The notes beneath the pieces are model-generated. The model worked only from the letters and a program-made list of their open reading frames with translations, was not told the DNA's origin and ran no database searches. Positions 24,309-52,950 of a stretch of 64,000 nucleotides of DNA are shown piece after piece. The position numbers and the translations under genes were made by a program. The stretch covers positions 896,001-960,000 of the forward strand of contig CBDEUK010000002.1 in NCBI GenBank assembly GCA_965243205.1, in the 5' to 3' direction. The stretch is from Gammaproteobacteria bacterium. Its GTDB lineage: Bacteria; Pseudomonadota; Gammaproteobacteria; Eutrophobiales; Eutrophobiaceae. Position 1 is the stretch's first letter; the number at the start of each line of letters is the position of its first letter.

Positions 24309-25127
24309 CTATTTCCTTGCAACTCCTATCAAAGCATCTGCTGTAAGTTCGCTTTGCATTGTTCCAATTTCCTGTTTTAAAAATGTGATTGCTTGTTGGT
24401 TTTTCTCTTCCCATTGCTCAGGTGTTAGTGTTTGTTTGTATAAAACAATTGGTAAACTACCTCTTACCATCGTATCCCAAAACTCTTCGACCGTTTTTAC
24501 TGGGAAGCTTTTAGTGACTAAAGAAACATCGATGTTATTAAACCCTGATTGAGACATTTCATCTTCAAACACTTCTTTACTATCTAATGAAACAATCGAC
24601 TTATCAGGTTCTGGCATATCAGGATTAATCTCCTTTAATGTACCAAACATAACTCGCATCGCGGGTGACTGTTCTATCGGTGCCCAACTGGCAACAACGG
24701 TGCAAGCACCAGGCTTTAATACACGATGTAATTCAGAGAATCCTCTAATGCGATCAGGGAAAAACATTAAACCAAACATAGAGAACGCAGCATCAAAACT
24801 ATTATCTTGAAACGTTAGTGTCTGACCATCTCCAACATGAGTAGTGATATTACGTATCTTTTGATTTTGAATTTCTTTATTTAAATGACTAATCATGTTT
24901 TCGGAAAAATCAATAGCTGTTACATGAGTAACTTGATCCGATACCATCAATGAAAGTGTTCCAGGGCCACATGCAACATCGATAATCGAATCATCTTCTT
25001 TTAGTGAGGCCATGTTAATGGCCTCACGTGAATATTCACTTAAAGAAAACATCGTTGTTTCAACGTACCCATCAGCAACAAGATTCCAGGAATCAGAATG
25101 GCTAAAAGGGTTTGAGATTTGATTCAT
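24309..25127 (-). CDS. Class I SAM-dependent methyltransferase
   Basis: IDVACGPG, IDFS, FDAAFSMFG and RVLKPG motifs. Confidence 0.88.
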   Translation of the reverse strand: MNQISNPFSHSDSWNLVADGYVETTMFSLSEYSREAINMASLKEDDSIIDVACGPGTLSLMVSDQVTHVTAIDFSENMISHLNKEIQNQKIRNITTHVGDGQTLTFQDNSFDAAFSMFGLMFFPDRIRGFSELHRVLKPGACTVVASWAPIEQSPAMRVMFGTLKEINPDMPEPDKSIVSLDSKEVFEDEMSQSGFNNIDVSLVTKSFPVKTVEEFWDTMVRGSLPIVLYKQTLTPEQWEEKNQQAITFLKQEIGTMQSELTADALIGVARK

Positions 25128-25193: not shown

Positions 25194-26621
25194 TCACACC
25201 TGTACTTCTTTCCAACGACCTTTTCGAAATACAACGTAAGCAATGATTGCGACTAATGATTCCGCAACAGTAATTGAAATAAACACACCTTGTGGACCAA
25301 TATCAAATATAACTGCCAACGAATAAGCCAATGGAATTTGTAACACCCAAAAACAAAAAAAGTTGATGATCGTTGGCGTCATCGTATCACCCGCACCATT
25401 GAATGCTTGAGTCAGAATCATAGACATAGCAAAAAAACCATAACCGTAACTAATATAACGTAGGCAATCACTGCCATACTGAATAACAGTTGGATCATTA
25501 GAAAACAGACTAATGATCGATTCTGCAAACAGAATAAATGGAATCGCAACTCCTACTAGAAAACAAGTACTGTATTTCGTTGTCTTCCAAACCGATTGTT
25601 CAGCTCGCTCTGGTTTGCCTGCACCAAGGTTTTGGCCAACTAACGTACTGGCTGCATTACTCATACCCCATGCAGGTAGAAAGGTTAGATCAATCACTCG
25701 AATTGCAATGGTATAACCTGCAATCGCTGCACTACCAAACGGCGCAACAATCTTCATTAAAACAACCCAACTGGCCGTAGCAATGAGAAACTGACCTACA
25801 CCACCTATGGAGAGTTTCAATAATTTAAACATTGTTTTAGTTTCAATACGTAAATGTCGCAGTTGTACTTTGACGCGTGTAGTACCATCGAACAAATGAT
25901 AAAGCTGATATAAAACACCAATGCCTCGTCCGATATTAGTTGCTACCGCTGCACCTGTCACACCCATCTCAGGAAAGAAACCAATGCCATAGATCAAACA
26001 TGGATCGAGAATGATATTGATCCCGTTCGCCAACCATAAAGACTTCATAGCAACTGCTGCATTACCAGCACCACGAAATATCGCATTTAATAGAAACAAA
26101 TAAACAATGGTGATCGAACTACCTAACATTATTGTTGTATAACCACTGCCCTGTTCAATCACTGCATCACTTGCTCCCATGAAACGCAAGATATCTTGTC
26201 CTAAGCTAATACCGATTACACCCACTACAATGGCAACGAATAAACCGATCCAGATCGTTTGTCCTGCAGCAACAGCAGCACCTTCTGGATTCTGTTCACC
26301 AATACGACGAGATACCATTGCTGTAACAGACATGCTTAAGCCAATTGCAACAGCATAAAGTAAAGTAATAACCGCTTCGGTTAAGCCGACTGTTGCAACT
26401 GCATCAGCTCCCAGACCTGAAACAAAATAAATATCGGTAATGGCAAAAATAGATTCCATCGCCATTTCCAACATCATAGGAATTGCTAATAAAAGAACGG
26501 CCCTACGAATCGAACCGTCGGTATAATCATGTTCCTTTCCAGCCAATGCTTCAGCAATCAATTGCATGCTGCGTTGGAATGACAAACGAAACTGATTAAT
26601 TTTTTCTTCAATATTTTTCAT
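25194..26621 (-). CDS. MATE-family efflux transporter
   Basis: LAIPMMLEM, RRIGE, NIILDP, GQNLGA and AFNGAGDT motifs; about 12 TM segments. Confidence 0.92.
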   Translation of the reverse strand: MKNIEEKINQFRLSFQRSMQLIAEALAGKEHDYTDGSIRRAVLLLAIPMMLEMAMESIFAITDIYFVSGLGADAVATVGLTEAVITLLYAVAIGLSMSVTAMVSRRIGEQNPEGAAVAAGQTIWIGLFVAIVVGVIGISLGQDILRFMGASDAVIEQGSGYTTIMLGSSITIVYLFLLNAIFRGAGNAAVAMKSLWLANGINIILDPCLIYGIGFFPEMGVTGAAVATNIGRGIGVLYQLYHLFDGTTRVKVQLRHLRIETKTMFKLLKLSIGGVGQFLIATASWVVLMKIVAPFGSAAIAGYTIAIRVIDLTFLPAWGMSNAASTLVGQNLGAGKPERAEQSVWKTTKYSTCFLVGVAIPFILFAESIISLFSNDPTVIQYGSDCLRYISYGYGFFAMSMILTQAFNGAGDTMTPTIINFFCFWVLQIPLAYSLAVIFDIGPQGVFISITVAESLVAIIAYVVFRKGRWKEVQV

Positions 26622-26725
26622 TACAAATACCCTGAAATCATAACGACATACGTCGTTTTAAAATAACTGTGTGAGGTTGGCGTATTGCGCCTTGAAGTGG
26701 TCGGCTTATAAAGCCTGATCCAGAA

Positions 26726-26830
26726 TCAAACGGTTGTTCGGATTCTTACCAGATCGACCAGGGAATTGAGCACGATCACAAACGAACGAAAGGAAACGCC
26801 GTTGATTAAATTGAATGTCATATGATTCAT
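26726..26830 (-). CDS. Putative leader peptide (34 aa) upstream of the MATE gene
   Basis: MNHMTFNLINGVSFRSFVIVLNSLVDLVRIRTTV*, between a sigma70-like promoter and the MATE start; homologous segment at 52757-52810. Confidence 0.55.
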   Translation of the reverse strand: MNHMTFNLINGVSFRSFVIVLNSLVDLVRIRTTV

Positions 26831-26864
26831 TGATCGTTAACTCAAAAGAATGAAAGTTACGAGA

Positions 26865-26892
26865 AGAATACGCCTTTCATACACTCTGTCAA
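26865..26892 (-). promoter_or_regulatory. Sigma70-type promoter for the leader/MATE transcript
   Basis: TTGACA-N16-TATTCT on the minus strand. Confidence 0.65.
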
Positions 26893-26906
26893 GAAATGTA
26901 TAAATT

Positions 26907-26941
26907 AAAAAAGCAAAGGGGGATGAGCAGCCCCCATTGCT
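26907..26941 (-). terminator. Rho-independent terminator after the molybdoenzyme gene
   Basis: GCAATGGGGG...CCCCCTTTGC-TTTTTT on the minus strand. Confidence 0.7.
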
Positions 26942-26962
26942 AAGCGAGGCTAGGGTTTGAGC

Positions 26963-29086
26963 CTAGGAGAGTTCTACTTGAACAAGATTATCGGAAAATG
27001 ATGGAGCGTGTCCCATATCAGTAAATTCAGCTGAGCTTATTGCATTCACCGTTCCATTATTTAACTGGCGCCAGTAACCTAACGTTGCAACTACTACACC
27101 TGGATTTACATCTGAAGTTATTTTTGCAACGCCTTCAAAATCACCACGCTCGTTGAATACGCGGACATTATCGCCCTGATTTATATTACGTGCTGAAGCA
27201 TCAACAGCATTTATCAATACAAACTGTTCACCTTGTCCTTTGATCTTATGTTCCATATTGGCATAACAAGAATTTAAAAAGCCATGGCTTTTAGGTGAAA
27301 CGATGTTAAGAGGAAATTTTTTCGCTTGCTCTGGGTTCGTTTCAGGACGTTCCCTTGGACCAACATAATCAGGAAGACTATCCAATGGTTCACCTGGTTG
27401 AAACGCTTCATACATTTGACGAAACGGCCCTGCGACAAAATTAGTAGCACCTTCAATTTCAAACTCACATTTACCTGATGGTGTTGGAAAATTACCTTCT
27501 TTGTGTGGACAACGATCGTCTTTTGTTCCAACATTTAAACGAGCAAAACCATTGTTTCGTAAATACTCTAAATCAATACCATCACATGCTGGTGAATCCC
27601 AATCGACAAAGTTTTCTAAACACTCAGAGTCAGACCACTTAAGACGATCTTCTTCATACCCCATTCTTTCTGCTAAGCGACGAAAAATTTCATTGTTTGG
27701 AATGGCTTCGCCTGGGGACTCAACACTCTTTGCGTTATACGTTAAATACAAATGTCCCCACGATAAAATAATATCTTCTAATTCAGCACCCATTGATGCA
27801 GGTAAAACAATGTCTGCATACGAAGCGGTATCCGATATAAAATGTTCTGCAGAAACTAAAAATAGATCTTCACGCATTAAACCTTTAACAATCTTATCTG
27901 CCTCAGGTGCTTGAGTCACTGGATTCGAGTTCCAACACATCATTGATTTAATCGGTGTATCTAATTCCATTTCACCTGTTAATGCCCTTCCAATTTGTAA
28001 GTTACTAACAACACGAGTTCCTTCAGGGATTAAATCAGGTCGACAAATAACATCAAACTTATAAGGATGTTCCCATACTGGGAATTGCGTTATGCCTCCA
28101 CCCACATGACGCCATGCACCTGTGAGAGCAGGGATACTAGTAACCGCGCGAATCGTTTGACCACCACCGTAATGACGTTCTAATGCAACGCCAATTCTAA
28201 TTGCAGCGGGTTGTTCAGTTGCCAGTTCTTTGGCAAATTTACGAATGTCTGCTGCAGGGATACCTGTAATTTCTTCTGCCCACTCTGGTGTACGATCACT
28301 TGCACGTTCTTTTAATGCTTCATAACCCTTGGTGTGATTCTGTACATAATCATGATCAACTAAGTCTTGTTCAATAAGACTATTGATAACCGCCATTGCT
28401 AATGCACCATCGGTACCTGGCTTAGGTGCAATGTGCCAATCAGCTTGCTTAGCGGTACGAGAAGCATAAGAATCGATAACAACAATCTTTGCGCCTTTTT
28501 TCTTAGCGTCTTGAACGATGTGCCAATGGTGTAAATTAGTACTGACACTATTGCATGCCCAAATCACAATGTATTTAGAATGCACATAACTTTCTGGATC
28601 AACACCCGCTGTAGGACCAACAGTTAATAACCAAGCGGTACACGATCCTTCACCACAAAAAGTGCGTTCACAAACGGTTGCTCCCATACGATTAAAAAAA
28701 GCATCGCCGCCATTTAAACCATGGACTAAACCTTGATGGCCTAAATAACTATAAGGAATGATTGCTTCTGGTCCGTATTCACTAATAATTGCTTTCCACT
28801 TATCAGTGATTTCATCTAAGGCTTCGTCCCAAGTAATGCGCTCGAATTGTTTACTGCCTTTAGGGCCAGTACGACGCATAGGGTACAGTAATCGATCAGG
28901 ATGATAGTGACGCTTCTCATAGTCTTTAAGTTTGACGCAAAGACCACCACGCGTCATAGGATGATCTTCATTACCACGTACACCGAGTACTTTGCCATCT
29001 TCAATGTCAAACACCATAGCGCAAGTATCTGGACAATCATGAGGACAGGCACCAAATGCTGTTTCTATTTTTGGATTAGACGCCAT
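26963..29086 (-). CDS. Molybdopterin (DMSO-reductase superfamily) oxidoreductase, cytoplasmic, with N-terminal 4Fe-4S cluster
   Basis: CPHDCPDTC...LCVK cluster motif; RITWDEALD; DTASYADIVLPA; C-terminal molydopterin-binding domain; no Tat signal. Confidence 0.9.
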   Translation of the reverse strand: MASNPKIETAFGACPHDCPDTCAMVFDIEDGKVLGVRGNEDHPMTRGGLCVKLKDYEKRHYHPDRLLYPMRRTGPKGSKQFERITWDEALDEITDKWKAIISEYGPEAIIPYSYLGHQGLVHGLNGGDAFFNRMGATVCERTFCGEGSCTAWLLTVGPTAGVDPESYVHSKYIVIWACNSVSTNLHHWHIVQDAKKKGAKIVVIDSYASRTAKQADWHIAPKPGTDGALAMAVINSLIEQDLVDHDYVQNHTKGYEALKERASDRTPEWAEEITGIPAADIRKFAKELATEQPAAIRIGVALERHYGGGQTIRAVTSIPALTGAWRHVGGGITQFPVWEHPYKFDVICRPDLIPEGTRVVSNLQIGRALTGEMELDTPIKSMMCWNSNPVTQAPEADKIVKGLMREDLFLVSAEHFISDTASYADIVLPASMGAELEDIILSWGHLYLTYNAKSVESPGEAIPNNEIFRRLAERMGYEEDRLKWSDSECLENFVDWDSPACDGIDLEYLRNNGFARLNVGTKDDRCPHKEGNFPTPSGKCEFEIEGATNFVAGPFRQMYEAFQPGEPLDSLPDYVGPRERPETNPEQAKKFPLNIVSPKSHGFLNSCYANMEHKIKGQGEQFVLINAVDASARNINQGDNVRVFNERGDFEGVAKITSDVNPGVVVATLGYWRQLNNGTVNAISSAEFTDMGHAPSFSDNLVQVELS

Positions 29087-50482: not shown

Positions 50483-52750
<2,268 letters not shown>

Positions 52751-52756
52751 TTTGCT

Positions 52757-52810
52757 AGAGTTAAGCTCGACCACGAAACGACGCAAGGAAGCGCCGTTGA
52801 TTAAATTGAA
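52757..52810 (-). repeat. Orphan diverged copy of the MATE leader segment
   Basis: 43/54 ungapped identity to 26762-26815, including 19 identical nt (CGCCGTTGATTAAATTGAA). Confidence 0.8.
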
Positions 52811-52950
52811 AGAATATTTCTTTTAAATTGTAAAAACTTGCTATGTTTTTAGTAAACTCTACTTATTGTCATATTATTAGTTTAATATGACTTCTAATTA
52901 TCCTCTGATTAAAAACTAAAACATAAGTTAATAATAAATAAGGAAGCATC

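Follow-up and report, generated by a model that had tools for sequence, protein, structure and literature searches.

The window analysed here is a stretch of 64,000 nucleotides (nt) from a Gammaproteobacteria bacterium of the order Eutrophobiales (family Eutrophobiaceae), corresponding to positions 896,001 to 960,000 of contig CBDEUK010000002.1 (assembly GCA_965243205.1). Its interval 26622-26892 holds a promoter and the conserved, folded 5' leader RNA of a gene encoding a MATE family efflux transporter. MATE exporters are widespread pumps for drugs and metabolites. A sequence-only reading of the window had proposed an unannotated, structured leader with a small open reading frame (ORF) ahead of the MATE gene, and this was borne out. 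The promoter, an upstream ORF (uORF) of 34 codons encoding the peptide MNHMTFNLINGVSFRSFVIVLNSLVDLVRIRTTV and the spacer (104 nt from the uORF stop codon to the MATE ATG at 26621) are all present as first noted, and the five stems named earlier all occur in the minimum-free-energy (MFE) fold. The leader, taken as the stretch between the predicted transcript start (about 26857) and the MATE AUG, is about 236 nt long. Its MFE fold has a z-score of -2.29, with 6 of 200 shuffles being equally stable. All leader coordinates refer to the minus strand unless stated otherwise; they are collected in Table 1 together with those of the neighbouring genes.

Table 1. Features of the MATE locus and of the second copy of the uORF segment within the window (P0, P1, P1' and H1 to H4, helices and hairpins described in the text; SD, Shine-Dalgarno; SAM, S-adenosylmethionine; E, expect value)
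Feature	Position	Strand	Remarks
Sigma-70-type promoter TTGACA-N16-TATTCT	26865..26892	-	10/12 consensus positions; -35 TTGACA at 26892-26887, -10 TATTCT at 26870-26865, spacer 16 nt
Predicted mRNA 5'-end motif ACUUUCAUU	26849..26857	-	kept in 6/6 leaders; complementary to the MATE start (P0)
P1 5' strand UUGAGUUAACGAUCA	26831..26845	-	uORF ribosome-binding region, up to the uORF AUG
uORF, 34 codons plus stop	26726..26830	-	ATG at 26830, stop ends at 26726
uORF codons 18-22 GUGAUCGUGCUCAAU	26765..26779	-	best-conserved block; P1 3' strand or, alternatively, P1' 5' strand
CCCUGG, uORF codons 23-25	26758..26763	-	candidate anti-SD partner of the MATE ribosome-binding site
Hairpin H1	26717..26755	-	encloses the end of the uORF with its stop codon
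Hairpin H2, GGCUU-UAU-AAGCC	26703..26715	-	3' strand plus the next CGACCAC (ending at 26697) can pair instead with codons 18-22 (P1')
Hairpin H3, GGCG-CAAUA-CGCC	26679..26691	-	
Hairpin H4, AACGAC-GUAU-GUCGUU	26642..26657	-	
MATE translation initiation region	26616..26634	-	SD-like CAGGG 26634-26630; AUG 26621; AAUGAAA 26622-26616 is the P0 3' strand
MATE family efflux transporter, 475 amino acids	25194..26621	-	PF01554, E 1.1e-67; TIGR00797, 281 bits versus cut-off 147
Class I SAM methyltransferase	24309-25127	-	below every NCBIfam cut-off; best resemblance to UbiE-type enzymes
Intrinsic-terminator-like hairpin with T run, end of the molybdopterin oxidoreductase gene	26918..26935	-	terminator scan; 5' limit of the unit
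Upstream molybdopterin oxidoreductase (ORF)	26963-29086		Pfam match
Partial second copy of uORF codons 6-23	52758-52810	-	85% identical over 53 nt, E 1.6e-8

A search of 126 species genomes of the order, which consists of a single family, revealed a MATE orthologue in nine of them, this one included (63-78% identity). In six of the nine, belonging to five genera, the orthologue is preceded by the same unit, which comprises in this order a promoter, a 5'-terminal motif ACUUUUCAU, an ATG uORF of 32-42 codons, several hairpins and the MATE start. These genomes are G000 (the present one), G014, G015, G090, G023 and G092, and all series of six values given below follow this order. Their promoters carry a -35 element TTGAC(A/T) and a -10 element TAT(T/C)CT or TAATCT, and the 5' motif reads ACUUU(U)[C/U][A/U]U, with ACUUUU[C/U][A/U]U in the genomes other than G000. 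As a combined pattern, promoter and 5' motif occur once per genome in the six, and neither in the other 120 genomes nor in reversed-pattern controls was a single occurrence detected. Comparison of the leader with 40 relatives gave one match, which is the orthologous leader. Since the whole unit recurs upstream of orthologous MATE genes in five other genomes, it is more than a product of chance. The structured leader with its maintained uORF is genuine and conserved, and it belongs specifically to a single MATE orthologue group in six genomes of this order.

The uORFs of the six leaders comprise 34, 35, 32, 35, 42 and 39 codons, with their start 26-37 nt downstream of the predicted 5' end and their stop 96-153 nt ahead of the MATE AUG. 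Conservation of the ORF in orthologous leaders had been set beforehand as a test, and the frame turned out to be open in all six, with no stop codon in the uORF frames compared to 31 in 12 off-frame spans. A Poisson estimate for such an open frame is about 0.08 per leader and about 4e-4 if three independent lineages are assumed, figures which, like the combined Fisher values given below, overstate the evidence because the six sequences are related. The G023 and G092 leaders are barely found or missed by a nucleotide hidden Markov model (HMM) of the others and still keep ORFs of 42 and 39 codons, respectively. Calculated pairing with a generic anti-SD tail amounts to -5.1, -5.9, -8.5, -1.9, -9.5 and -8.8 kcal/mol before the uORF AUG and to -4.0, -6.5, -3.7, -6.5, -3.9 and -5.2 kcal/mol before MATE, being stronger at the uORF in four of the six leaders.

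The MFE folds of the six leaders have z-scores of -2.8, -2.8, -1.8, -4.0, -1.8 and -3.5 (300 dinucleotide shuffles each). For the four alignable leaders RNAalifold gave a consensus structure of 47 pairs in eight helices. Here 87.2% of the cells are paired, compared to 36-45% with slid partners, and 13 of the 47 pairs have changed on both sides, compared to 2-5 with slid partners; none of 500 shuffles reached either observed value, both being counted on the same alignment of only four related sequences from which the structure had been derived. This alignment, made with MAFFT, misplaces a 3-nt insertion in one hairpin.

Helix 1 of the consensus (P0, UUUCAUU/AAUGAAA) connects the 5' motif with the MATE start by seven pairs, with 92.9% of the cells paired in the four sequences and no covariation. 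It is accompanied by a small hairpin over the uORF AUG (helix 2) and by another hairpin in uORF codons 10-17. In P1' (helix 4) the invariant GUGAUCG-GCU of codons 18-21 pairs with AGCCGA(U/C)C(G/A)C just after H2 (10 pairs, 92.5% of the cells paired, two pairs changed on both sides). Tested as a duplex against shuffles P1' was not significant (Fisher p 0.48), though it is the helix of the consensus fold. The same block has a further partner, because the best duplex between the 5' untranslated region (5'-UTR) and the uORF, designated P1, hits this mid-uORF block in all six leaders (-15.3 kcal/mol here). The 5' strand of P1 ends at most 3 nt from the uORF AUG in all of them, and the p values are 0.003, 0.017, 0.05, 0.031, 0.41 and 0.56 (Fisher p 0.0004). 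One invariant block with two mutually exclusive partners, P1 and P1', is the hallmark of an attenuator.

Further downstream, three of the seven pairs of H1 (helix 6) have changed on both sides, the outer helix reading GAUCU/GGAUC here, GGACACAG/CUGUGUCC in G090 and CAGCC/GGCUG in G015. The uORF stop codon lies within a local hairpin in five of the six MFE folds. H2 is seen in single-sequence folds and not in the consensus, H3 (helix 7) has one of three counted pairs changed on both sides, and H4 (helix 8) two of four (AACGAC/GUCGUU here, AACGGU/ACCGUU in G014). The tetranucleotide GAUC is present 4, 5, 2, 0, 1 and 4 times in the leaders, forming clusters in some of them, and lies in the partner-swapping strands; it may represent palindromic pairing modules or Dam sites and is not universal. 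A terminator scan detected no intrinsic terminator in the leader. Furthermore, an Rfam search of positions 26000-27500 (cmscan, E up to 10) returned no family at gathering score. The best matches, both on the plus strand, reached 19.3 and 18.7 bits versus gathering scores of 44 and 56. A match to a known riboswitch was among the findings that the sequence-only reading had named as speaking against it.

For the MATE initiation region (-18 to +8) we compared four candidate partner segments with shuffles. Only the 3' half of the uORF beats the shuffles, since its p values of 0.065, 0.106, 0.633, 0.213, 0.091 and 0.008 combine to a Fisher p of 0.0048 (-14.4 kcal/mol here) versus 0.07 for the 5' end, 0.40 for the 5' half of the uORF and 0.97 for the spacer. 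The predicted pairings are CCCUGG/UCAGGG here, CUCUGAU/AUCAGGG in G014, CCCUGAU/AUCAGGG in G090, CCUGU/ACAGG in G023 and a helix of 14 base pairs in G092. A modelled ribosome footprint lowers the opening energy of the MATE site by 1.3-1.5 kcal/mol in G000 (codons 17-25), by about 2.5 kcal/mol in G014 (codons 18-27) and by about 4 kcal/mol in G092 (codons 27-36). These calculations are suggestive only as to a sequestration of the MATE ribosome-binding site.

We interpret the leader as a uORF-dependent attenuator controlling expression of the pump, and put the probability of this reading at roughly one half. It is based on the conservation of the unit, the maintenance of the open frame and the conserved RNA structure with its compensatory changes, all of which are observed. 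From these we infer translation of the uORF, stalling, a signal, and an output which would be MATE translation rather than transcription or mRNA stability. In the proposed mechanism the uORF would be translated and the ribosome traffic on it would pick among mutually exclusive helices. In P1 the uORF ribosome-binding region would pair with codons 18-22, in P1' the same codons would pair with the segment after H2, and H1 would wrap the last codons of the uORF together with its stop codon. Finally, two partners would be available to the MATE ribosome-binding site, namely uORF codons 23-25 and the mRNA 5' end (P0). If a ribosome slowed down or stalled while in the latter half of the uORF, the helices would be kept open and MATE would be translated. 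Such a course would represent translation attenuation as in the erm and cat leaders. Classical transcription attenuation is unlikely because the leader has no intrinsic terminator. As modelled here, the attenuator logic is plausible and the output step is a proposal.

There are several results which weigh against this interpretation, in addition to the relatedness of the six leaders and the small alignment behind the covariation counts. The sequence-only reading had singled out a peptide core FNLINGxSxRxFVxxLNS, and this did not prove to be conserved. The uORFs of G014 and G090, two species of one genus with 35 codons each and no gaps, differ by 18 non-synonymous versus 4 synonymous changes, and the differences at codon positions 1, 2 and 3 number 11, 13 and 19 (chi-square p 0.30). 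The mean BLOSUM score for the four alignable leaders is -0.33 in-frame versus -0.9 to -1.2 off-frame, a weak signal, and there are 4 synonymous pairs in-frame versus 1-5 off-frame. When all frames were aligned locally, as an unbiased comparison, the uORF frames came out on top in only 4 of 15 pairs. The length of the uORF alone is unremarkable per leader, being matched by 398-665 of 2000 shuffles. Moreover, P1 and helix 2 pair the uORF's own ribosome-binding region and AUG in the predicted folds, which would hinder its translation. At the MATE site, 27, 13, 35, 3, 24 and 11 of 70 leaders with shuffled upstream sequence show an opening energy equal to or above the observed one, i.e. in five of six leaders the site is not more closed than in shuffled leaders (Fisher p 0.09). 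The modelled footprint has a small effect in G015 and G023 and almost none in G090, and placed on the codons of the C-terminal R-x-R/K element described below it does not open the MATE site, which in G000 it even closes. Regarding distribution, the three remaining orthologues of the order (in G061, G019 and G114) have unrelated upstream sequence and no leader, and two further orthologues found in a class sample of 400 genomes (58% and 54% identity) are without a leader, too.

A peptide-guided alignment of the six uORFs scored better (BLOSUM +0.10, 22 synonymous pairs), and we have discounted it as evidence because it was picked by amino-acid similarity, by eye. Aligned by hand and by eye, the last third of the six peptides suggests a loose motif, namely (V/I)-L-x-x-x-(V/M/I)-(D/N/Q)-x-V with R-x-R/K or PPD after it. 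The short R-x-R/K motif is found within the last seven residues of five of the six peptides (RIR, RIR, RLK, RLK, KTR), the sixth having PPD; it could be explained by chance or by RNA constraints. IFVI and Arg/Lys-x-Arg/Lys are among the arrest motifs of nascent peptides. By comparison of the sequences, then, the uORF frame is maintained and the peptide sequence mostly not, which fits a uORF whose translation, rather than its product, matters, or one of which only a short peptide element matters.

The weak conservation of the peptide would also suit a structured cis-regulatory RNA that needs no translation of the uORF and responds to temperature or to a small ligand, a protein or a small RNA, the open frame being incidental. 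In its fold P1 would close a three-way junction containing two internal hairpins, and H1 to H4 would come after it. The structure is indeed strong and conserved, it includes the uORF ribosome-binding region and AUG themselves in conserved helices, and its best-conserved stretches are invariant at synonymous sites, too. Besides, genes for efflux pumps are frequent riboswitch targets, e.g. of the guanidine classes. On the other hand, Rfam holds no match at E up to 10, and within the P1 domain neither junctions nor loops are, by eye, conserved in the way of ligand pockets. An incidental frame is also difficult to reconcile with six open frames of six versus 31 off-frame stops, including those of G023 and G092, which are no longer alignable at nucleotide level, and the two alternative partners of the conserved block are what an attenuator needs. 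On balance we consider a purely RNA-based sensor rather unlikely, while keeping it as a serious competitor. Also unlikely, and to be ranked behind it, is a mode of action like that of SpeFL and TnaC, in which the uORF would be translated, H1 would serve as a polymerase pause hairpin and the stalled ribosome would block Rho or alter pausing, resulting in a transcriptional output. SpeFL is a leader peptide of 34 residues with the sensor motif HIRRXXH, and it has a pause hairpin around the 3' end of its ORF as well as an overlapping Rho utilization (rut) site (10.1101/604074). The uORFs of 32-42 codons are of similar size, a hairpin surrounds the last codons and the stop codon in five of six folds, and its outer helix covaries; the lack of a detectable intrinsic terminator and the weak statistics for sequestration of the MATE site point in the same direction. 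However, HIRRXXH is absent from all six peptides, which carry no conserved sensor motif and evolve fast. A consistent C-rich, G-poor window was not found either, the best 60-nt windows having C/G ratios of 1.5-2.75 at different places in what is a crude composition test, and the spacers contain about as much C as G and are filled with the G+C hairpins H2 to H4. Furthermore, the regulated gene encodes a MATE pump and not, as in the SpeFL and TnaC systems (ornithine and tryptophan, respectively; both Rho-dependent), a catabolic enzyme or an antiporter operon.

The attenuator interpretation also has to be weighed against two further explanations. If the product of the uORF were a small functional protein, e.g. 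a partner of the pump, with the RNA structure being secondary, an open frame and the hydrophobic stretch in the C-terminal half would be expected features. This is very improbable in view of the rapid turnover within one genus (18 versus 4 changes, see above) and of the hydrophobic stretch itself, which by eye is nowhere long enough for a membrane helix. In a collection of 15 billion proteins the exact peptide of the window was not present, and a look-up meant for the G014 peptide, whose coordinates are unchecked, was empty, too. Similarly, we give hardly any credit to the idea that the leader is without regulatory function, that is, a chance ORF in an ordinary 5'-UTR or the remnant of a dispersed repeat or mobile element. 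The unremarkable ORF length per leader and the partial second copy in the window would agree with it, but there are only two copies in 2.79 Mb, the unit is kept with its gene in six genomes of five genera while the flanking genes differ, and the structure covaries.

Several known systems resemble the leader in part. Like the efflux-pump riboswitches of the guanidine classes, it is long and structured and precedes the gene for a multidrug-type exporter; it differs from them in having no covariance-model match, a conserved ORF running through the fold and no conserved unpaired pocket that could be seen. Compared to attenuators of the trpL type, a repeated residue run is missing from the six peptides and a terminator-like site from the leader. 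The leaders of cat and cmlA belong to the same translation-attenuation type as that of ermC, and leader ORFs of the erm/cat type have 9-19 codons or so versus 32-42 here. For ErmCL-ermC, drug-inducible translation attenuation is described in PMC5499644. Like the erm, cat and cmlA leaders, the present one has, directly ahead of a resistance-type gene, a short leader ORF equipped with a ribosome-binding site of its own. Common to them are also alternative helices involving this ORF and the absence of a terminator in the leader, and a candidate anti-SD in our uORF could pair with the downstream ribosome-binding site. In contrast to them, the uORF ribosome-binding region here pairs with the middle of the uORF (P1) and the mRNA 5' end with the start codon of the main gene, two pairings which distinguish this leader from all the leader-ORF systems compared. 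Sequestration of the downstream site is here not statistically established, and sequence similarity to these leaders is lacking.

PA5471.1-armZ (MexXY) reportedly obeys a ribosome-mediated attenuation logic. The same logic is described for the efflux or protection genes BmrB-BmrCD, for the mef/mel leader and for MsrDL-msrD in PMC4191407, PMC4335068 and PMC10314930. A transporter or resistance gene is switched on when ribosomes falter on the upstream ORF, which is the likeness to the mechanism proposed here. These systems act via intrinsic terminators (transcription attenuation), and none was found in the present leader; the transporter classes differ, and there is no sequence similarity. We class our leader by its logic as working like a uORF attenuator and not as a member of any named family, since it shows neither the SpeFL motif nor a rut-like region nor an Rfam match.

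A more far-reaching possibility is that the leader represents a new class of translation-sensing leader with a new family of arrest peptides controlling a MATE exporter, as the sequence-only reading had supposed in part. The uORF would then keep its ribosome-binding site locked in P1, except when it is translated during RNA synthesis. Its codons would subsequently toggle to P1', and the folded leader would tie the mRNA 5' end to the pump start codon. On exposure to a pump substrate or a ribosome-targeting drug, the ribosome would be arrested by the short C-terminal element (a hydrophobic residue, D/N/Q, x and V, with R-x-R/K or PPD after it). We regard this as unlikely. Among the papers listed in a full-text literature search, none described a uORF leader ahead of a MATE pump. 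A leader with a conserved uORF and structure would help to find out when the pump is turned on in this little-studied order of bacteria. If translation stress or one particular compound were what the uORF senses, the few bacterial regulatory nascent peptides would gain a new sensor sequence. With a narrow family (six genomes found) and an inferred mechanism, its present value is that of a well-defined candidate for experiment.

The second copy of the uORF segment was the argument by which the sequence-only reading had deduced selection on the peptide. The copy exists, and its four synonymous changes were confirmed. They are accompanied, though, by five non-synonymous changes (S to R and V to E among them), a ratio close to the neutral expectation, and the two copies align equally well with one deletion and one insertion. 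The second copy is located just past the stop codon of a catalase-peroxidase-like ORF (50591-52750) on the opposite strand, i.e. in antisense orientation. In the matching frame it has no start codon, and a stop codon lies five codons upstream. Neither the leader promoter nor any downstream element of the leader was detected at this locus. Most likely it is a decaying duplicated fragment; it has no bearing on selection on the peptide, and this part of the earlier argument does not hold. On the 5' side of the copy we noticed a weak promoter-like site (9/12 consensus positions, 52827-52856, minus strand), antisense to the catalase-peroxidase-like gene and not above chance.

A dispersed repeat of the repetitive extragenic palindrome (REP) or miniature inverted-repeat transposable element (MITE) kind was considered and rejected, the segment being present in two copies in 2,793,537 bases (two contigs). 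The other 23 of 25 matches within the own genome are chance matches of at most 35 nt (E at least 0.19). The sequence-only reading had named a dispersed repeat as a finding that would speak against it, and with only two genome copies the leader is none.

The methyltransferase gene follows 66 nt 3' of the MATE gene, with no terminator-like site in between, and had been suggested to be controlled by the leader, too. At best such control is specific to this genome. The 1.5-kb flanks of the eight other orthologous MATE loci contain none of the three neighbours seen here, i.e. the methyltransferase gene, the AraC-family gene that follows it and the oxidoreductase gene on the upstream side. The conserved unit therefore consists of the leader and the MATE gene only. 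A terminator-like hairpin with a T-rich tail (26496-26519, minus strand) falls into the initial 125 nt of the MATE coding sequence and may be due to chance.

A search with the MATE protein in named genomes yielded at least 80 loci, mostly of Bacteroidota and with 50-59% identity. Among the matches listed, the leader HMM recognised only L052 and none of the 79 others. The partial match in L052 equals that of the G023 leader (L043) both in score and in extent, and L052 thus apparently carries the same or a near-identical leader. L052 belongs to a public metagenome-assembled genome record labelled 'uncultured Enterobacteriaceae bacterium', a label that probably does not reflect its true placement. 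A metagenome scan with a degenerate pattern of the conserved uORF block gave 15 stretches, showing no leader match beyond the pattern and no MATE gene nearby. Searching the family with the uORF peptide resulted in five weak matches (E 0.02-0.8), at whose loci neither a MATE gene nor a leader match was found.

Within the order the MATE gene itself is limited to 9 of the 126 genomes, and outside it the closest relatives in named genomes are, among the matches listed, mostly from Bacteroidota. Such a patchy occurrence suggests horizontal transfer. About 600 nt 5' of the MATE orthologue of G061 (locus L040) we noticed, by eye, long G+C-rich inverted repeats at the place where others have the leader. 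The G023 leader (L043, 2959-3053) contains a 40-nt tandem duplication between uORF and MATE (2.3 copies, 96% matches), owing to which its spacer measures 153 nt compared to about 100 nt elsewhere.

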